A stretch of DNA of 32,000 nucleotides from Parasynechococcus marenigrum WH 8102 (GCF_000195975.1 NC_005070.1:2130001-2162000), one strand, 5' to 3'. Positions 3,291-16,259 are shown, counted from the stretch's first letter. Notes: generated from the letters alone by a model not told the origin. Made by a program: numbers and translations.

Positions 3291-3362
3291 TCCTCGGTAG
3301 CTCAGCGGTAGAGCGGTCGACTGTTAATCGATTGGTCGCAGGTTCGAATCCCGCCCGGGGAG
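3291..3362 (+). tRNA. tRNA-Asn (anticodon GUU)
   Basis: Cloverleaf folded by hand. Acceptor stem TCCTCGG/CCGGGGA, D-arm GCTCAGCGGTAGAGC, anticodon loop CTGTTAA, T-loop TTCGAAT. There is one A-C mismatch in the T stem and no encoded CCA. Confidence 0.9.
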
Positions 3363-3366
3363 CTTG

Positions 3367-8390: not shown

Positions 8391-8912
8391 GTGCCCCGCA
8401 GTAATCGCAACGACAACTTCATCGACAAAAGCTTCACGGTGATGGCGGACCTGATCGTCAAGCTGTTGCCGATCAACGCCCGATCCAAGGAGGCATATGT
8501 CTATTACCGCGATGGCCTCTCCGCTCAGAATGATGGCGACTACGCCGAAGCGCTGGAGAACTACGACGAGGCGCTGAAACTCGAGGACAACCCCACCGAC
8601 CGTGGGGAGACCCTCAAGAACATGGCGATCATCTACATGTCCAACGGCGAGGAGGAGCGGGCGATTGAGACGTACCGCAGAGCCCTGGACGAAAACTCCA
8701 ACCAGCCGTCATGCCTCAAGAACATGGGGCTGATCTTTGAGAAATGGGGGCGGATCGCCGAAGAAGACGGCCGCCAGGATGACGCCGATCGCTGGTTTGA
8801 CCAGGCCGCCGAGGCCTGGACCCAGGCGGTGCGCCTCAACCCCGGTGGCTATCTGGACATCGAGAACTGGTTGAAATCCACCGGGCGCAGCAACGTCGAC
8901 GTCTACTTCTGA
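8391..8912 (+). CDS. ycf3: photosystem I assembly protein Ycf3 (TPR)
   Basis: The GTG start gives the canonical 173-aa protein, (V/M)[14 protein letters not shown]...NVDVYF. ATG 8367 is an alternative start. TPR-like repeats are present. Confidence 0.9.
8899..8911 (+). repeat. left direct repeat (putative attL core) ACGTCTACTTCTG
   Basis: Identical 13-mer at 14861-14873. Overlaps the last codons and the first two bases of the stop codon of ycf3. Confidence 0.85.
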
Positions 8913-8969
8913 CAAATGCACCTCCTAAGAATCCAGTCATAGAGCGGGATTTGACGAGGTGCGCTAAAG

Positions 8970-10388
8970 TTGTTCCGAGTCTGTTCCAACAGGGTCGTGC
9001 CAAAAGTCCTCGAAAAGCGGAAAGTCGCCGGAATCAAAGGTGACATCGTTTTGCTTCAACGCGGGCACAATTCGATTGGTTACTACTACCGGGAATACAG
9101 GTCGCTCACCCGTGACTACAAGTTTCAGAAAATCGAAGGCGCCAAGGACATGTATGAGGCGTGCGAGCAAGCCGTTGATATTGCATTCAAGTTTAAAAGT
9201 GAATTCTCAAAAGAGAAGAAGGTTATAAGCGAGCAAGTTGGCGTATACGCACCAAAAAGACAAAGCAGAAAAAGATATAAGCCAATTAAAGCAGCAATAG
9301 ATGAATATCTTGGCGAGGAAGAGAAGAGGGCACGATCTGGTCTCATACAACCTGGCACTTTCAAGACTAAGAATGAATCCTTCAGGCTGTATATCGAACC
9401 TTATATAGCCTCAAAAGGCATTAAGTATACGCAACAGATAGATCACAGCACCTTTGAAGAATATTTTATTTATCGAGCACGAACAACAGCTCTGATGCGG
9501 CAGAGAGAACTTGCTTTCATAAAGCAATGGATCAATAATTATCTACTTCCTAACAAGCTGCTGAATGAAATGCCATCAAAAGCATGGTATCCGCGACAGA
9601 TCGTCAGACAAACGGATCGAATGGCTAACCCAGCTATAAATCCAGCTGATTGGAAAGTAATTATTGATTACATTCGTGATGATTGGCGACATTATCATGA
9701 GCAGGGAGGAATGAAAGGACCTGCAACAAGAATATGGCGAGATGCCTTTTGGCATTTCTGCCTATTCATGAAAAATACCGGGATGAGTCCTGAGGAGATC
9801 TTGAAACTCAAATGGAAAAACGTCGAGATACGAGACATAGGCAGGATTGACAGCAAAGGCGAACGACAAGAATGGCTAGTTGCGTACATCAACACAATCC
9901 GAGCGAAGACACAACAGATGCGAGAAATACCAACTAACCAAGGCAAAGAACTAAAGAGATATATGCAGATGCTGAAGGACTACTGCGCTAAGTACAAGAT
10001 TCCAAATTCAATAGGACCTAACACGCTGGTCTTTGGCAATCCAAATCTAAACTTCGAACCATATGGCCACTGGCGATACGGAAGGTGCTGGCGTGAAATC
10101 AGAGAAGAACTAGCCGACAAGCTCAAAGGCCACAAGTTCAGCAATCACCCATACACCCTGTACTCAATGCGAGCAACATTTATAGAAGATCATCTGCGTA
10201 GAGGCACAGACATCTTTCTACTGGCACGGATGGCTGGCCACGACGTCAAAGAATTAATGAAGAGCTACGAAAGACTTGACATAAGAGAAAGAACCAAAGA
10301 AATAACGACAATTGAATTCGGCAAGCAGAAAAGCAAGGAGGAAGACTTCCTGATCGACCTGATGCAACCAGAAGACGATCAAATCTGA
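8970..10388 (+). CDS. tyrosine recombinase / phage-type integrase (atypical active site)
   Basis: C-terminal catalytic domain: TGMSPEEILKLKWKNV (box I region), IRAKTQQMREIP, YSMRATF (HxxR position), AGHD, and KSYERL (nucleophile Tyr). The start is uncertain: TTG 8970, GTG 8997 or ATG 9150. Confidence 0.85.
   Translation: MFRVCSNRVVPKVLEKRKVAGIKGDIVLLQRGHNSIGYYYREYRSLTRDYKFQKIEGAKDMYEACEQAVDIAFKFKSEFSKEKKVISEQVGVYAPKRQSRKRYKPIKAAIDEYLGEEEKRARSGLIQPGTFKTKNESFRLYIEPYIASKGIKYTQQIDHSTFEEYFIYRARTTALMRQRELAFIKQWINNYLLPNKLLNEMPSKAWYPRQIVRQTDRMANPAINPADWKVIIDYIRDDWRHYHEQGGMKGPATRIWRDAFWHFCLFMKNTGMSPEEILKLKWKNVEIRDIGRIDSKGERQEWLVAYINTIRAKTQQMREIPTNQGKELKRYMQMLKDYCAKYKIPNSIGPNTLVFGNPNLNFEPYGHWRYGRCWREIREELADKLKGHKFSNHPYTLYSMRATFIEDHLRRGTDIFLLARMAGHDVKELMKSYERLDIRERTKEITTIEFGKQKSKEEDFLIDLMQPEDDQI
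8971..8990 (+). repeat. two TGTTCC repeats 11 bp apart (putative arm-type or operator sites)
   Basis: TGTTCCgagtcTGTTCCAAC. Same motif and orientation as the clusters at 11490-11518 and 14776-14823. Confidence 0.6.
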
Positions 10389-10429
10389 GGCCTCGGCCGA
10401 AAAACAGGTTTCTCAATAAGGGTGAATTA

Positions 10430-10476
10430 TTGACAATTCGCGCATGCGCGAAATTTGAGACTGCTCACGAAATTTG
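10430..10476 (+). promoter_or_regulatory. putative promoter/operator upstream of the 295-aa ORF
   Basis: Consensus -35 TTGACA (10430-10435) is directly followed by the perfect 16-bp palindrome TTCGCGCATGCGCGAA (10437-10452). Two CGAAATTTG direct repeats follow (10449-10457, 10468-10476). No convincing -10 found. Confidence 0.4.
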
Positions 10477-10523
10477 CCATATGCCAAACAAGAGGTTAAT
10501 TTGGCTTTAGAGAACAACTCACA

Positions 10524-11411
10524 ATGACTACTAGCACTACAACAAAAGATCGTCACATTACTGACGAAGAATTTGAAGATATTCTTGAATCAGATACATC
10601 TCAGAAGCTGTCCATGTCGATTGAGAGGCAGCCATCGGCTTTATCTCAATCAGATATCGAGCCTGGCCTGCAGGAAACATTCAATGAGAACTGGGAAGCC
10701 AGTATTATCAGCGGACTAACACCGGATCAAATAAGATTACTCAAAGAAAGAACATATTATGCCAATAAATATTACTGGGCTGCTGGCAAATCAATCAGAG
10801 AGACAGCCAGATACTTAGCTGAGATTAGAGAAAATTGCCAAACAGGAACATGGATGGCATTATGCGAAAGCAACAAGCTTAATATCAGCTCCTCGAAAGC
10901 CCGCGAGCTCGCTAATGTATGGGATAAATGGTTAAAGCATGACTACACTATTCCAGAGCTTGCACTCGTTGATGTCTCCACTCGTACACTCAACTTCGTG
11001 GCAAACATCAAAGACGAGGAAACAAAATTAAAAGCAGTAGGATTACTTCGTGACGGCAACAAGATTTCCGAAGATAAATTAAAAGCTATTTTGAAGGAGA
11101 AGAAAACAGCTACAGATGAAGAAAAAGCCAAGGCAAAGCTGAAAAAAGAATTGGATGAGATTGAAAAAGATGCTTCACTGACTGACTACTCAAAACTTGT
11201 CAAGAAGAGTATCAAGCAAAGTGAATTTAAACTCTCTCAAATGCCGGCAAGGATCAAGAAACTCCAGCAAGAAAACAAGGAATTAGAGGAAAAGCTCGAT
11301 GCCTTGAAAGAGGCAGCCAAAGGCCCTGAAGAAGCAAAGGCCTACATTGAAAAGATACGAGCAACTGCACAAGCCAAGAGAGAAGAAACCTCCTTTGCAC
11401 GCAAAGGCTGA
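10524..11411 (+). CDS. hypothetical protein: acidic N-terminus, central region reminiscent of DUF3102, Lys/Glu-rich coiled-coil C-terminus
   Basis: 295-aa ORF with an ATG start, followed by two hairpins. The segment AAGKSIRETARYLAEIRENCQTGTWMALCESNKLNISSSKARELANVW resembles the DUF3102 pattern from memory only. Confidence 0.7.
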   Translation: MTTSTTTKDRHITDEEFEDILESDTSQKLSMSIERQPSALSQSDIEPGLQETFNENWEASIISGLTPDQIRLLKERTYYANKYYWAAGKSIRETARYLAEIRENCQTGTWMALCESNKLNISSSKARELANVWDKWLKHDYTIPELALVDVSTRTLNFVANIKDEETKLKAVGLLRDGNKISEDKLKAILKEKKTATDEEKAKAKLKKELDEIEKDASLTDYSKLVKKSIKQSEFKLSQMPARIKKLQQENKELEEKLDALKEAAKGPEEAKAYIEKIRATAQAKREETSFARKG

Positions 11412-11448
11412 AGACAAGGGTTCTAAAACCCTGCTTGGAAAGAATTCA

Positions 11449-11474
11449 AGCCTCTACATAAGCAGGGGCTTTTT
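11449..11474 (+). terminator. intrinsic terminator after the 295-aa ORF
   Basis: Stem AGCCTCT / AGGGGCT (one G-U pair), 8-nt loop, then TTTTT. Confidence 0.6.
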
Positions 11475-11489
11475 CATGTTGAGCAGGCA

Positions 11490-11518
11490 TGTTCCATGTC
11501 TTATGCATATATGTTCCA
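11490..11518 (+). repeat. two ATGTTCCA repeats 22 bp apart
   Basis: cATGTTCCATG (11489-11498) and atATGTTCCAaa (11511-11518), in the same orientation as the end clusters. Confidence 0.6.
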
Positions 11519-11915
11519 AAATTCTCTGGAAAGCCAGTGGGGATGGGGGTTGCAAAAGTCTTGGTATAACGTCGACGCCAGACGAGACTCCTAAAATTGC
11601 TAGAGCGGTGGTAGCTAATCAAATTAGTAGCCAAATATAGAGTCGCCTTGTATAAACGAGTAGAAAATATCAGAAGCAAGAATTAACTACAATCTCAACC
11701 TGCCAGCTCAACTAAATTCATCAATTTAAGCAAAAGGGTAATCACATCTGCTATCACAATATATACACAATTCAAAGGATTTTAAAAGCATTGCTTGATT
11801 TAACCCTCTATTAGCTTGAGTCACGCACAGGGCAAAAATTAGAAACACCTAGAAGGAAATATATAATCAAAACTTTTACGTGAACTGTGTAGATCTAGGT
11901 ATGAAAAACTTATGA

Positions 11916-11937
11916 CGTTACGCTCGTTACGCTCGTA
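11916..11937 (+). repeat. 9-bp tandem repeat CGTTACGCT x2.4 (iteron-like)
   Basis: CGTTACGCT CGTTACGCT CGTA, read directly, inside the AT-rich non-coding stretch. Confidence 0.8.
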
Positions 11938-12047
11938 GCACCGTAATCTATATAAGTGCTGTATTAATACCAGCTACGTTTACCATGCCGCCTTTCCCTC
12001 TTATGTCTTTCAACTAGTGTATTAAAAAAAGAATATATAAGGGCTTT

Positions 12048-12100
12048 AGCGTAACGAGTTTTATAACTTTGCAGTCATACCAATGCTTTTGCTCGTTACG
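12048..12100. repeat. inverted pair of the same CTCGTTACG motif, separated by 33 nt
   Basis: AGCGTAACGAG (12048-12058) is the reverse complement of 11923-11933. GCTCGTTACG (12091-12100) is a direct copy of 11922-11931. Confidence 0.8.
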
Positions 12101-12267
12101 GTCTATTTTGTGATTAAGCCAATTTATAAGATTAAACTTTTCCAATATCTCATCAGATATAAAAAAGTTAAAACTAAATTTTGAGATAAAGAAACCCATA
12201 AGATCATGAAAGCATTCAAAGGGTAAGAAGCAAAGTCTGTTAAAATATATGCAAAGCAGCTCAAGAA

Positions 12268-12465
12268 ATGAATATCGAATCAATCGAGACAGCATTATCT
12301 AGAGCAAAAAGGTTTCATCTTGGTAATAATGCGAGAGCTAGATACAACGCACCTGGTGATGACACCAATATTACAATCAATACCAAAGAAAAAGTAGTTG
12401 TTGAGAAGCTTTATTTGGTTATGAATATGGATGATTACTGGGGAACGAAAGATAAAGAAAATTAA
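12268..12465 (+). CDS. hypothetical small protein (65 aa)
   Basis: ATG-started ORF in the island with plausible hydrophilic composition. No recognisable motif. Confidence 0.4.
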   Translation: MNIESIETALSRAKRFHLGNNARARYNAPGDDTNITINTKEKVVVEKLYLVMNMDDYWGTKDKEN

Positions 12466-12554
12466 ATGTACGGTAACTACGAAAAAGAGATGCAACATTA
12501 CCCAACCCTGCGTTCCAACTGATAGTTAGCTTCGAAGTAATTTAATTGAATCTC

Positions 12555-12809
12555 ATGCCACGTTTTCGCAAAGGTCAATTGACTTCAAAGACTGATTTCG
12601 AATATGCAATCTATTGGGAACATTTGAGAGCTGAATATTTCAGAGTTAAAGGAAATCAATCCCAATATGACGAGTGCTTAAGGAGAATCACAGAACTAGA
12701 ATGGCGGAATGCAACACGATTTAGTGCAGACGAAATTGATATCTCTTCAAACAATGATTTACAAGATATTGGCATTGTGCCATCCGATGAAATCTCTATA
12801 AAAGACTAA
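12555..12809 (+). CDS. hypothetical small protein (84 aa; 87 aa if TTG 12546)
   Basis: ORF in the island. A GTTCCAAC motif lies 43 bp upstream of the ATG. No recognisable motif. Confidence 0.45.
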   Translation: MPRFRKGQLTSKTDFEYAIYWEHLRAEYFRVKGNQSQYDECLRRITELEWRNATRFSADEIDISSNNDLQDIGIVPSDEISIKD

Positions 12810-12886
12810 AACTGATAAAAAATTTGCGAGACATCTAATATCATCTGAGATGAGTAATCCGGCTGAACAAAAAAAATAAACATCAA

Positions 12887-13156
12887 CTATGGACAATTGA
12901 TTCTTTCCATCCCAGCTTTGATTGTCTGCTCTTGTTCTCTGAGCTGCTCTATTTCAGCAAGAGCAGGAATAGCAGGCACAAAGGCATTAACTTGAACTGT
13001 GAGAAATGTAACTTCTTCATTCTTTATTTCACGCAATGCGTTAGCACCTGATAGACAAGCAAGAGTTACTGACTTCAGGTCAGCATCCTCTTTTTTCTCC
13101 ACCTTCTTGATTGATGAGATAGCTGAGTGTATATTCTCCATCAGGTTTCCAGTCAT
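12887..13156 (-). CDS. hypothetical small protein (89 aa from ATG), the only minus-strand island ORF
   Basis: ATG-started ORF. The frame stays open 28 codons further upstream and encodes a signal-peptide-like segment (see findings). Confidence 0.45.
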   Translation of the reverse strand: MTGNLMENIHSAISSIKKVEKKEDADLKSVTLACLSGANALREIKNEEVTFLTVQVNAFVPAIPALAEIEQLREQEQTIKAGMERINCP

Positions 13157-13339
13157 TGCGAATACTGTAGTTGGAGTAAGTGCAAGTAATGCACACAGAA
13201 CTATTCCTAGTAATCGGCTAATATCAGTTAGTGGCTTCAGTCAATTCTAATTTCTATAGCCATATGAGCAAGAGCTTTCAGTAAGACAACGCCGGCTAAC
13301 GCCGGCTTTATCGGTTAATGTCCATTCGGAGTTAACCCG

Positions 13340-13723
13340 ATGACATTTCAAACAGTTCCCATTGCATCAGCACAGCTCGACCAACTTGCGGACAATATCC
13401 CTGGGTTCACCAGTGATTAGCAATTACTGAAGGATACGCTACAAACAACGATCTTCGTGTCTGGAGCATCTTCTTCATCTGATGGCCGCGCTTCTTACAT
13501 CCTTGGAAATGAGGGTGAACGTGTGTGGCTTCCTAACACTCTGACATGCTGGATTAACGATCTCAAGATTGTTACTCAAACCTACGAACAATATGATCCT
13601 GTTGAAAAGCTACTTGTTTATGTGACAAGTATAACTCGACATCATGGGTCTACCGAATGGGCTTTGATTCATGGGCAAGCTCGTCATTGCTTACAATCAT
13701 CAAATCGATGTCACCAACAATGA
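13340..13723 (+). pseudogene. 127-codon reading frame interrupted by one in-frame TAG (13418-13420): nonsense-disrupted or readthrough gene
   Basis: ATG 13340 through TGA 13723 is a single frame with one internal amber codon. The track only reports the GTG-started distal part, 13457..13723. Confidence 0.5.
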
Positions 13724-14055
13724 TCAAAAAGCGTATTCAAATTAGCCTTAGGCCTAAAGGTCGCGCTTGTTTTGTTGATGTTTCTGCAATCACAGAAGAT
13801 CAATCTGATTACAAGCGTGTTCAAATCAAGGATATTGATTTAGGCCGCAAGCTCGGATACACCGAGATGCTCGATGTCATTTCGTATTTCCATTTGGCAC
13901 AATCCAGCATGCAAGCCCAGATGGCTCAAGCACCTGTCGAACCCAAGCAGCTACCAGCAAGCTCCGAGAGCTCTTCAGAAGCTCTTGAAGCTATGGCTAA
14001 ACCCAGGCGATCTAGGCGCAAGTCCAAAGCACCTGCAAAGGCTACAACCGCATGA
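13720..14055 (+). CDS. hypothetical protein with Ser-rich linker and basic C-terminal tail (111 aa; 132 aa if ATG 13657)
   Basis: ATG 13720 overlaps the upstream stop as ATGA. The C-terminus is KPRRSRRKSKAPAKATTA. Two strong terminators follow. Confidence 0.55.
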   Translation: MIKKRIQISLRPKGRACFVDVSAITEDQSDYKRVQIKDIDLGRKLGYTEMLDVISYFHLAQSSMQAQMAQAPVEPKQLPASSESSSEALEAMAKPRRSRRKSKAPAKATTA

Positions 14056-14061
14056 ATACAT

Positions 14062-14091
14062 AGCCTCGCATTTCTAGCGGGGCTTTTTTTG
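14062..14091 (+). terminator. intrinsic terminator (first of a tandem pair)
   Basis: Stem AGCCTCGC / GCGGGGCT, loop ATTTCTA, then TTTTTTT. Confidence 0.8.
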
Positions 14092-14100
14092 ATACTTGAT

Positions 14101-14126
14101 AGCCGGTTAACACCGGCTGTTTTTTT
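14101..14126 (+). terminator. intrinsic terminator (second of the tandem pair)
   Basis: Stem AGCCGG / CCGGCT, loop TTAACA, then GTTTTTTT. Confidence 0.75.
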
Positions 14127-14206
14127 AGTGGTCGAAATGTAAAAGATGGATAGTTCCAACCAGGATCTTGCGGCATCAACAACTTCGGCCACCAAACCCA
14201 CTAGCT

Positions 14207-14437
14207 ATGCACACTATGCGCTTCAAAATCCCAGGCCGCGACATCCAAGTTCGCATTGTCGAACGTGTCATGACGAATGACCCACAATATGACATATTTG
14301 ATGTTGGTATTGAGTACCAAGATGGATCAATTGATTCACTCGTCGTACCAGGAAGCGGCTCTTACAAATCGGCAAAGGCTTTTGTCAAACGTATTGACGA
14401 CAAAGCGCAGACAAAAGAATCAATTGCTACAGTCTGA
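14207..14437 (+). CDS. hypothetical small protein (76 aa from ATG 14207; the track ORF starts at TTG 14168)
   Basis: ORF with a GTTCCAAC motif upstream (14153-14160) and a strong terminator downstream. Confidence 0.5.
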   Translation: MHTMRFKIPGRDIQVRIVERVMTNDPQYDIFDVGIEYQDGSIDSLVVPGSGSYKSAKAFVKRIDDKAQTKESIATV

Positions 14438-14445
14438 ATAAAATT

Positions 14446-14471
14446 GCCTGCAATAACTGCAGGCTTTTTTT
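14446..14471 (+). terminator. intrinsic terminator
   Basis: Stem GCCTGCA / TGCAGGC, loop ATAAC, then TTTTTTT. Confidence 0.85.
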
Positions 14472-14542
14472 ATTTTCTATCTATCTTTAGGCTTGCATTA
14501 CTAGCTGCATTTGCGAATATTTAAATAATTGGCATTGGAACG

Positions 14543-14731
14543 ATGGGTATTTTTGCTGCCACATTGTCAAGCGTAAGCATTTTAATTTCTATTCCACTTA
14601 TCCAAACGTATTTAAAGACTAATGAATCAAAACAGGCAATATTAATGGACTGTATTAGCAGGCAAATCATATCTCCGCTATGCACTGATTTGTATCTTCG
14701 AAATCCAGGCAAAACTTACGCTGGACATTAA
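14543..14731 (+). CDS. possible small membrane protein (62 aa)
   Basis: Hydrophobic N-terminus GIFAATLSSVSILISIPLI. It competes with antisense ORF 14521..14712. Weak call. Confidence 0.3.
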   Translation: MGIFAATLSSVSILISIPLIQTYLKTNESKQAILMDCISRQIISPLCTDLYLRNPGKTYAGH

Positions 14732-14775
14732 CGAACCTTTAAATTTTAAGAAGTGTTACAAACCTTAATAGGATC

Positions 14776-14823
14776 TGTTCCATGTCACGTTCCATGCTCT
14801 GTTCCATGTTTGTTCCGTTCCAC
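14776..14823 (+). repeat. array of five GTTCC(ATG) repeats with 12/12/11/5-bp spacing (putative arm-type sites)
   Basis: TGTTCCATG tcac GTTCCATG ctct GTTCCATG tt TGTTCC GTTCCAC. The array ends 38 bp before the right direct repeat. Confidence 0.75.
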
Positions 14824-14860
14824 TGACAGTGGCAAACCCTTTAGTATGACACGAACATGC

Positions 14861-14873
14861 ACGTCTACTTCTG
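14861..14873 (+). repeat. right direct repeat (putative attR core) ACGTCTACTTCTG
   Basis: Identical to 8899-8911. Contains the radA stop codon (CTA on plus, 14865-14867). Confidence 0.85.
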
Positions 14874-16259
14874 GTCCGTCACGTCCTCACCGAGGGCCAG
14901 CACCAGGGCCTCGGTGACCCCATCGGCCTCCAGGAGGGCAAGATCAAGACCACTGGCCAAGGCACCTAGTCCACTGCCACGGGGCACCACCGCCCGCCGG
15001 AATCCGAGCCGCGCTGCCTCCTGCAGGCGTAACTCCAGCTGACCGACCGGTCTGAGCTGCCCCCCCAGACCGAGCTCGCCGACCAGCACCGTCCCCGGCG
15101 GGAGGGTGAGATCGCGAAAACTGGCCACCACCGCAGCCGCCACCCCAAGATCCGCCGCCGGCTCCTCCACCTCCAGCCCACCGGCCACGGCCAGGTAACA
15201 GTCAAAGCGGGAGAGGGGTAACCCCATGTGCTTTTCCAGCACCGCCAGGATCTGGTGAAGCCGGTTGGTGCCGATGCCCGTGGCCGTGCGTCGAGGGCTG
15301 GCATAGCTGGTGACATTGACCAGGGCCTGCAGGTCCACCACCAGCGAACGTGATCCCTCACAGGCCACGATCGTGGCGACACCCGAGGCACGGGTTTCAC
15401 TCAGGAACAACTCGCTGGGATTGCTCACCTCCTCCAGGCCCTGGGCCTGCATCTCGAACAGTCCCAGTTCATGGGTGGCTCCGAAACGGTTTTTCACGGC
15501 CCGCAACAGCCGGTGACTGGCAAAGCGGTCCCCTTCGAAGGTGAGCACCGCGTCCACCAGGTGTTCCAGCACCTTGGGTCCAGCCAACATTCCCTCCTTG
15601 GTCACGTGGCCCACCAACAACAGGGCTGTGGTCTGGCGTTTGGCCAGCCGTTGCAAGGCGGCGGCACATTCCCGCACCTGACCAACCGAGCCGGGAGCAC
15701 TGGGGAGGTTGGCGTCGTGAAGTGCCTGGATGCTGTCGATGATCGCCACGGCAGGACGCAGGGCCTCCAGCTCCTCCAGCACCAGCTCGAGGTCGGTTTC
15801 CGCCAGCAGCTGCAGATCAGAGGGGCCACCCGCCAGGCGCTGCCAACGCAGCTTCACCTGCTGGGCCGACTCCTCAGCACTCACATACAGCACTGAGGTT
15901 TGAGCAGCCATCGTCGACGCGCTCTGCAGCAGCAGGGTGCTCTTACCGATGCCCGGATCTCCCCCCACCAGCACCAGGGAGCCCGGCACCAGCCCGCCAC
16001 CCAGCACCCGATCAAATTCACCGGAACCCGTTGGCAATCGCCGGATCGGCTGATCCTCCAGCGAGGCCATGGCTGTGGAGCGTTTCGGCGTCGATGGTCG
16101 GTCTGCATCGGGCGCACGGCGACGACGGCCGCCGTCATTGGCGGGCTGGGACTGCTCGACGAGGGAATTCCAGCTGCCGCACTCCGGGCAGCGCCCAAAG
16201 AACTGTCGTGACTGGGCTCCACAGACCTGGCAATGGAACACAACGGCGGATTTAGGCAC
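14865..16259 (-). CDS. radA: DNA repair protein RadA/Sms
   Basis: N-terminal zinc finger CQVCGAQSRQFFGRCPECGSW, Walker A GDPGIGKST, RadA motif KNRFG, Lon-protease-like C-terminal domain. Confidence 0.95.
   Translation of the reverse strand: MPKSAVVFHCQVCGAQSRQFFGRCPECGSWNSLVEQSQPANDGGRRRRAPDADRPSTPKRSTAMASLEDQPIRRLPTGSGEFDRVLGGGLVPGSLVLVGGDPGIGKSTLLLQSASTMAAQTSVLYVSAEESAQQVKLRWQRLAGGPSDLQLLAETDLELVLEELEALRPAVAIIDSIQALHDANLPSAPGSVGQVRECAAALQRLAKRQTTALLLVGHVTKEGMLAGPKVLEHLVDAVLTFEGDRFASHRLLRAVKNRFGATHELGLFEMQAQGLEEVSNPSELFLSETRASGVATIVACEGSRSLVVDLQALVNVTSYASPRRTATGIGTNRLHQILAVLEKHMGLPLSRFDCYLAVAGGLEVEEPAADLGVAAAVVASFRDLTLPPGTVLVGELGLGGQLRPVGQLELRLQEAARLGFRRAVVPRGSGLGALASGLDLALLEADGVTEALVLALGEDVTDQK

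Follow-up and report, generated by a model that had tools for sequence, protein, structure and literature searches.

The window, a 32,000-nucleotide stretch of the Parasynechococcus marenigrum WH 8102 genome (NC_005070.1:2130001-2162000), contains an island of 5.95 kb (positions 8912 to 14860, no strand assigned) with a GC content of about 0.42 versus about 0.63 in the rest of the window and the host. Its extent is defined by composition, ORF content, Pfam and PHROG searches and comparison with an empty site. The same 13-mer, ACGTCTACTTCTG, occurs on the plus strand at both ends, as the left att core (attL, 8899 to 8911) and the right att core (attR, 14861 to 14873). On the left flank, a plus-strand gene for a ycf3-like TPR protein ends at 8912; the left core falls in its last codons, and an A supplied by the island completes its TGA stop. 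On the right flank, the minus-strand radA gene ends at 14865, and the right core contains its stop codon (CTA on the plus strand). Two metagenome contigs (L031 and L032), whose encoded Ycf3 is 99% identical, possess a ycf3/radA junction without the island. Their empty site reads GACGTCTACTTCTGATCCGTCACG (more widely ...GACGTCTACTTCTGATCCGTCACGTCC...), and in it the ycf3 TGA stop overlaps the radA stop, with zero intervening DNA. Because these contigs display the empty junction, the segment from 8912 to 14860 is a precisely inserted element with the 13-mer as its att core, and it sits where ycf3 and radA overlap at their 3' ends. Since everything between the cores is missing from that junction, the GTTCC repeats described below are carried by the island and not by the target site. 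Twelve further contigs with an identical integrase show the same ycf3 context, and each of them ends within the island.

Position 14874, at attR, is a G in the window and an A in the empty site (position 3023 of L031/L032), where it forms the third base of the ycf3 TGA stop. The A-to-G difference is synonymous in radA (GAT to GAC), and the G either derives from attP or arose by mutation once the island had given ycf3 its stop. In four other marine metagenome contigs (L041, L042, L043 and L038), the ycf3 stop is followed by AT-rich, foreign-looking DNA and radA is absent there; L038 additionally has a short duplication (ctacttcta atcagcta...) at the ycf3 junction, and the 2.5 kb examined in these contigs holds no relative of the island integrase. 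The ycf3/radA junction may be a recurrent insertion site, as judged from these sequences. Integration linked to a tRNA gene was considered and rejected, as ARAGORN found no tRNA at the att sites of the window or of the 16 related loci scanned; the sole tRNA gene of the window, tRNA-Asn at 3291 to 3363, lies 5.5 kb from the att site.

The integrase gene (int) faces inward at the left end of the island, and the remaining island ORFs have no family assignment: searches against Pfam and PHROG retrieved no family except the integrase and, in particular, no replication-initiator family. The only other island protein with relatives is orf295 (10524 to 11411; 34% identity in L004 and 29% in L001), the C terminus of which is rich in coiled coil. 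Between the block of island ORFs and the distal att arm lies a perfect GC-rich hairpin (14446 to 14464, GCCTGCA-loop-TGCAGGC) with T-runs on both strands, resembling a bidirectional terminator. An 850-bp noncoding AT-rich stretch of the island houses a second repeat family (11916 to 11936, about 12049 to 12060 and about 12092 to 12101), with 2.3 tandem copies of CGTTACGCT at 11916 to 11936 (Tandem Repeats Finder score of 42) and, about 130 to 180 bp downstream, an inverted copy (agcgtaacgag) and a direct copy (ctcgttacgg). This family is a candidate origin or regulator site.

GTTCC repeats in both arms of the island

The arm next to the right core contains five plus-strand copies of GTTCC, which start at 14777, 14789, 14801, 14812 and 14817, i.e., at spacings of 12, 12, 11 and 5 bp. 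The copies at 14777, 14789 and 14801 each read GTTCCATG, that at 14812 reads GTTCC and that at 14817 reads GTTCCAC; the array ends at 14823, 37 to 38 bp ahead of the right core. A direct reading of the sequence thus bears out the earlier note, which had listed five same-orientation copies ending 38 bp before this core. It had also placed two copies 60 to 80 bp past the left core, and these lie at 61 and 72 bp beyond the core end (+73 and +84 from its start), with GTTCC starting at 8972 and 8983, 11 bp apart and in the same orientation as the right array. Delimited as plus-strand features, the distal (P-type) arm repeats are repeat 1 (TGTTCCATG, 14776 to 14784, -84 from the core start), repeat 2 (CGTTCCATG, 14788 to 14796, -72), repeat 3 (TGTTCCATG, 14800 to 14808, -60), repeat 4 (TGTTCCGTT, 14811 to 14819, -49) and repeat 5 (CGTTCCACT, 14816 to 14824, -44). 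Repeats 4 and 5 overlap, with an offset of 5 bp, such that a reader of about 9 bp cannot occupy both. The int-proximal (P'-type) arm has repeat 1 (TGTTCCGAG, 8971 to 8979, plus strand), situated at +73 from the core versus +64 to +77 in relatives, and repeat 2 (TGTTCCAAC, 8982 to 8990, plus strand), 11 bp past repeat 1 and 6 nt from the int start.

The concentration of the word in the island far exceeds a composition-matched background, as had been anticipated: the plus strand has 12 copies of GTTCC versus 2.3 +/- 1.5 expected, a count reached in 0 of 2,000 dinucleotide shuffles, and the minus strand has only 4. The five copies within 47 bp compare with a shuffle maximum of 2 for GTTCC (2,000 dinucleotide-preserving shuffles) and of 4 for any 5-mer in a span of that length (500 shuffles). 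Tandem Repeats Finder independently called 14777 to 14809 with a period of 12. The proposal that these are chance or slippage-derived tandem repeats devoid of function might draw on period-12 GTTCCATG arrays that also occur in unrelated viral contigs without an integrase, but it is effectively refuted by the shuffle statistics, the recurrence of the word in the opposite arm and the conservation of the architecture in more than 10 relatives (see below). We set aside the viral arrays themselves (five, all in contigs with no integrase homologue) as unrelated and probably coding or simple repeats.

Five of the plus-strand GTTCC copies lie inside the island beyond both arms; they add to the strand bias. 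Two of these, TGTTCCATG and TGTTCCAAA, are 22 bp apart downstream of orf295 (11490 to 11520, plus strand) and are at most candidate members of the system; the other same-strand GTTCC(A) copies are at 12512, 13355 and 14153. An explanation at the level of RNA was ruled out, as an Rfam scan of 8700 to 15100 retrieved no family, and a 54-aa ORF (14753 to 14917) with a repeated VPC, which runs through the array and core and antisense into radA, was treated as spurious.

The integrase and its N-terminal domain

The integrase gene occupies 8997 to 10388 on the plus strand, counted from a probable GTG start; its assignment draws on the family alignment start, PHROG, PF00589, Foldseek and a model of the N-terminal domain. 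The left repeat pair had been described as overlapping the most upstream candidate start of the gene. This is correct for the TTG at 8970, but the true start is probably the GTG at 8997 (MPKV...), because the alignment of the family begins uniformly with MPK[IV]..K..V, and the overlap is therefore probably an artefact of picking the TTG. With the GTG start, the proximal pair lies just upstream of int and outside the gene.

On the basis of structure prediction, Int is a three-domain tyrosine recombinase, with an N-terminal sheet-plus-helix domain (residues ~1 to 80), a SAM-like core-binding domain and a catalytic domain. Profile searches recovered phrog_1, "integrase" (E = 2e-14), and a match to PF00589 of 21.6 bits, which is under the 27.1-bit cutoff; across the family, 40 of 41 members match PF00589 and 7 match the SAM-like core-binding family. 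The full-length AlphaFold model (pLDDT 85) was aligned by Foldseek with Cre, IntI, Tn1549 Int(82-397), XerA and XerH (E ~1e-7, probability of 1.0, ~350 columns), with approximately the first 100 residues falling outside the match, and the core-binding region matches 3nrw. The family, homologues of which turned up only in genomes of Synechococcus and Prochlorococcus and in marine metagenomes, is further distinguished by an invariant serine in a TGMSPEE motif (box I; 9810 to 9830 of the window, residues ~271 to 276 in 472-aa numbering), which hhalign aligned with R212, the first catalytic arginine of lambda Int, and by an invariant arginine (DVGR) 19 residues after this serine.

Modelled alone, the N-terminal domain adopts four β strands followed by a long helix (pLDDT of 86.6 overall and >90 over residues 1 to 70). 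Pfam yielded no Arm-DNA-bind match to it; Foldseek searches of the model against the PDB and BFVD gave insignificant matches only, a PDB profile search with the domain alignment gave nothing, and an hhalign comparison with the N-terminal domain of lambda Int was not significant (probability of 1.3%). Arm-binding domains have been described as highly variable, consisting of three strands and a helix, and as frequently overlooked by Pfam (PMC8138268). As modelled, the N-terminal domain of Int shows the general secondary-structure pattern of the arm-binding domains reported there.

Matched arms in related elements and in apparently unintegrated contigs

An alignment-based scan detected 27 related loci in Synechococcus and Prochlorococcus genomes, and further ones came from exact-protein look-ups and a viral collection; single-protein queries of the genome and viral collections retrieved no related loci, an alignment query being required. 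The expectation that homologous elements would have repeats at their ends held for 10 of the 11 elements with both ends available, which display a pair of repeats phased at about 11 bp, with the motif matching in both arms. The words differ from GTTCCA: they are element specific, at the same position and in the same phase, and the GTTCCA word itself is found in no other element examined. Comparison with relatives therefore backs the sites of the window by positional analogy rather than by sequence conservation. Of 24 int-upstream regions, 16 contain a mismatch-free direct repeat of 8 nt or more with a period of 10 to 12, versus 1.2% of background 70-bp windows, and the arm repeat motifs are unrelated to the core sequences.

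The positional agreement is clearest in seven Prochlorococcus elements with both ends (L007, L012, L013, L015, L016, L019 and L022) that share the core ACTACTGGCTAATGAA, which lies at the 5' end of a gene coding for an EVE domain protein (PF01878, E = 9e-53). The right pair occurs in all seven, at -61 to -59 and -50 to -48 from the right core, with an 11-bp period, and the left pair occurs at +64 to +65 and +75 to +76 in six, with L013 having it at +76 and +87. Copies 3 and 4 of the window (14801 and 14812), at -60 and -49, have the offsets of this conserved pair. The motifs found at the shared core (CATTCCAAC, CATACCAGCA, ATCCACACA, TTATCCAAAC and GTCCACAC) are identical within an element and differ between elements. 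The same arm logic recurs at a different target site in an element of Prochlorococcus MIT0707 (core GTTTCGAAAGAGAACA, motif ATACCAAC). In an element of Synechococcus A18-46.1, the core, CGATAGCCTCCAGC, lies just 5' of a UvrD-type helicase gene and the arms have CATACC/CATTCC repeats; its distal arm comprises three overlapping copies in a register (CATTCCCATTCCATTCCCAG) that resembles the overlap of repeats 4 and 5 in the window. The exception among the 11 is L009, where the int-proximal pair is CATTCGAAC, whereas the right arms that come next have motifs of the ATCCACACA and TTACCCAAAC types. Judged from their sequences, these arms look as would be expected of a hybrid produced by recombination between stacked elements.

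Prochlorococcus single-cell genomes contain up to seven copies of the EVE gene core in 21 kb (L009, L012 and L016); in L009, the cores are at 1218, 3896, 6180, 7534, 9908, 16190 and 16978. At the stacked-core junctions examined, a repeat pair of varying type is present about 50 to 60 bp upstream. From its sequence, the Prochlorococcus island appears to be a stack of elements and their remnants, located at a protein-coding gene's 5' end rather than at a tRNA gene. In L022 and L025, the int frame is broken after 151 and 134 codons, respectively, reflecting either decaying elements or errors of single-cell assembly; the arms and cores of L022 look intact.

It had further been proposed that in a reconstituted circle the repeats would flank the core on both sides, and this layout is displayed by four contigs that appear to be unintegrated (L029, L112, L030 and L111), in which repeats flank a stretch of about 80 to 110 bp immediately upstream of int. 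As far as sequence can tell, it is apparently the layout predicted for the circle. L029 (ENA ctg43093, 29.5 kb) is phage-like and has element genes on both sides of the int-upstream region; it has a 3.7-kb terminal repeat (97.8% identity, period of 17.7 kb) and may be a concatemer or a tandem pair. Its close relative L112 is truncated, with no more than some 300 bp of contig ahead of int. L030 is a viral contig of 17.7 kb (IMG/VR UViG_3300047546_002074), whose attP has three copies of the ATACCAAC type, about 100 bp and then a pair abutting the ATG, and L111 is a contig of 6.1 kb. The first three represent phage-like elements of about 17.7 kb with integrases 49 to 51% identical to that of the window; they also encode very large proteins with a Phage_lysozyme2 domain, a DNA methylase and a small-terminase-like HTH protein.

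By the same arrangement, the attP of the window island in an excised circle would comprise the five-copy array ([T/C]GTTCCA..., spacing of 12/12/11/5), 37 to 38 bp, the 13-bp core, 59 bp, the two-copy pair 11 bp apart, 6 nt and the GTG of int. The circle junction would read ...GAACATGCACGTCTACTTCTGACAAATGCACC..., and a search of viral contigs for this junction did not find it.

The reader of the repeats and comparison with known systems

From the sequence comparisons and by analogy with characterized integrases, we consider it likely that the island's own tyrosine integrase uses the GTTCC repeats as arm-type binding sites. In tblastn searches of all window-island proteins against the related loci, Int alone proved common to all elements, with orf295 present in two loci only; this screen covers the proteins encoded by the window island. 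Across 22 elements, the distance between motifs correlated with the divergence of Int residues 1 to 50 (Mantel r = 0.47, P = 0.0002), more weakly with that of the following helix (r = 0.27) and not with that of either the core-binding or the catalytic domain (r = 0.01 for both); the partial correlation of motif and N-terminal domain given the rest of Int, r(M,N|C), was 0.57. With near-identical elements removed (n = 15), the correlation for the N-terminal domain was 0.27 (P = 0.056) and those for the other domains were at or below zero. The motif differences thus seem to track the N-terminal domain, with a consistent direction and modest statistical support. By eye, Y-[KR]-F in the third strand accompanies motifs with TTCCA or TTCGA, including those of the window; Y-R-T accompanies those with TACCA, and WYYKEK accompanies those with CCACAC.

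A different protein might instead read the repeats and thereby shape attP or control int, be it an excisionase or regulator of the element or a host factor (e.g., of the OmpR/PhoB type). Excisionase sites and the sites of winged-helix response regulators typically show direct repeats with a period of about 11 bp, the searches linked the N-terminal domain of Int to no known arm-binding domain, and the small ORFs of the island have no family assignment. We nevertheless regard this as unlikely. The motif varies within the same host genus and at the same core, which argues against a host factor as the reader, and an element-encoded reader is disfavored by the presence of Int as the only window-island protein that the elements have in common and by the association of motif differences with its N-terminal domain specifically. 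Another notion is that the int-proximal pair, and possibly the array, serve only the transcription of int or of neighboring genes, as operators or promoter elements, without taking part in recombination. It finds some encouragement in the position of this pair, which ends 0 to 59 nt ahead of the int start codon in every family member, and in the distal arm of the Prochlorococcus elements, which precedes the start of the reconstituted target gene. It is a good deal less probable, given that the same motif recurs in the other arm, 5 to 10 kb away, at a distance fixed to the core rather than to a gene start, and that no sigma-70-like promoter was predicted in either arm of the window; a regulatory role would, moreover, be compatible with arm sites and is no true alternative to them. 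Less plausible still is a role as iterons, with the excised circle replicating from an origin that contains the repeats. Iterons are indeed phased direct repeats, and some tycheposon-type elements have replication genes (bioRxiv 10.1101/2020.12.28.424599). However, the Pfam and PHROG searches of the island uncovered no replication initiator, the placement of repeats at either end of the island, each set a fixed distance from the core, is the geometry of an attP, and the different repeat family at 11916 to 12100 is a better candidate for an origin.

With Int as the reader, a mechanism can be conceived wherein each Int molecule would hold the arm repeats through its small N-terminal domain and the core through its core-binding and catalytic domains. 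With the arm DNA folded back, Int would bridge arm and core, assembling a recombination complex that would give specificity, and probably direction, to recombination. Binding by the N-terminal domain, DNA bridging and control of directionality are proposed here by analogy with lambda Int, Tn916 Int and IntDOT. As the proximal pair directly precedes the int start codon, Int bound to it may also lower the expression of int, an autoregulation made plausible by the conserved position of the pair. The failure to predict a sigma-70-like promoter in either arm speaks neither for nor against an int promoter there, and, in the integrated state, int is directly downstream of and co-oriented with ycf3, such that read-through from the latter is possible.

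A broader reading, which we advance only tentatively, combines three proposals: that the N-terminal domain represents an unrecognized class of arm-binding domains, that its codiversification with the arms constitutes an element identity code and that the proximal pair is the operator of an autorepressor. At least five motif classes occur at a single core, that of the Prochlorococcus EVE gene. If there were such a code, each of the integrases of elements competing for, or stacked at, one core would assemble only on its own arms, and an element could leave a tandem stack independently of the others; hybrids with mismatched arms, such as L009, would be unable to move and would end up as island "fill." This would offer a concrete hypothesis as to how different elements stacked at one site remain individually mobile.

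Arm sites make a tyrosine integrase directional and element specific. What is described here is most likely a known kind of device, in a cyanobacterial integrase family where it had not previously been described, and comparison of the loci suggests that it extends across the whole picocyanobacterial family. Within a marine Synechococcus that serves as a model, the analysis furnishes an exact predicted attP for one small mobile island. It also yields a signature, namely, a core accompanied by matched pairs with 11-bp phasing, located about +64 to +88 bp on the left and -44 to -95 bp on the right, which could be used to delimit related elements and their remnants in the genomic islands of Synechococcus and Prochlorococcus. 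The natural series of N-terminal domains paired with different 9-bp motifs could help in deriving a recognition code and could furnish orthogonal integration tools for the engineering of picocyanobacteria, in which such work is difficult.

Known systems close to these elements include the tycheposons of Prochlorococcus, which are defined at seven tRNA/tmRNA sites, are flanked by partial tRNA copies and have a recombinase lineage distinct from the common types, the tree of which includes "non-tRNA-associated" recombinases (Hackl et al., bioRxiv 10.1101/2020.12.28.424599). Like them, the elements studied here are picocyanobacterial, have an inward-facing and apparently lineage-specific tyrosine recombinase at one end and stack at one site. 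Unlike them, they target the ends of protein-coding genes, with no tRNA at the att sites of the loci scanned with ARAGORN, and the window island has no hallmark replication or mobility genes (primase, helicase and others) detectable with Pfam or PHROG. The text of the tycheposon preprint (bioRxiv 10.1101/2020.12.28.424599) has no mention of arm sites or direct repeats, and a full-text literature search for arm-type sites together with Synechococcus returned nothing relevant.

Mechanistically, the reference point is lambda Int, whose attP has the arm-type sites P1, P2 and P'1 to P'3. The earlier note had likened the repeats to the arm sites of lambda-like integrases, and the likeness stands for the architecture and the matched arms but not for the N-terminal domain, for which homology went undetected. 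As in lambda, an additional N-terminal domain precedes the core-binding and catalytic domains of the recombinase; both arms of attP carry repeats unrelated to the core, in tandem copies about one helical turn apart; int adjoins the P'-type arm (attL); and the element restores the end of its target gene. In contrast to lambda, the N-terminal domain has no detectable sequence or fold match, so that the resemblance is one of architecture; the window repeats are all in one orientation and lie within about 45 to 85 bp of the core, with the multicopy array in the arm distal to int; the target consists of the overlapping 3' ends of two protein-coding genes instead of an intergenic attB; and no accessory bending protein or excisionase was recognized for the window island.

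IntDOT of the Bacteroides element CTnDOT also uses arm-type sites, and its arm-binding domain was at first missed by Pfam; in the IntCTnDOT subgroup, the first catalytic arginine is absent and an alternative arginine is present downstream (PMC8138268). The integrase family of the window may compare with this subgroup in its invariant serine, aligned by hhalign with lambda R212, and its invariant arginine downstream, but it differs from IntDOT in having no Pfam match to the CTnDOT-type domains, in the phylum of its host and in belonging to a small element without conjugation genes. The arm-binding domain of Tn916 Int is a three-stranded sheet with a helix (PMC8138268), a secondary-structure order similar to that of the N-terminal domain modelled here, and residues 82 to 397 of the Tn1549 integrase, which exclude the arm-binding domain, are among the best Foldseek matches to the core-binding and catalytic part of Int. 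Unlike the domains of these transposons, the N-terminal domain of Int is built of four strands and a long helix and had no significant match in the structure searches, and insertion of the island is site specific, at an identical 13-bp core, whereas the target choice of Tn916 and Tn1549 is relaxed. Three features of a heterobivalent integrase, namely, the recombinase fold, the extra N-terminal domain and repeats in both arms of attP, are present together in the island, and on the combined strength of sequence, structural models and analogy, a heterobivalent integrase system is the best-supported reading of it.
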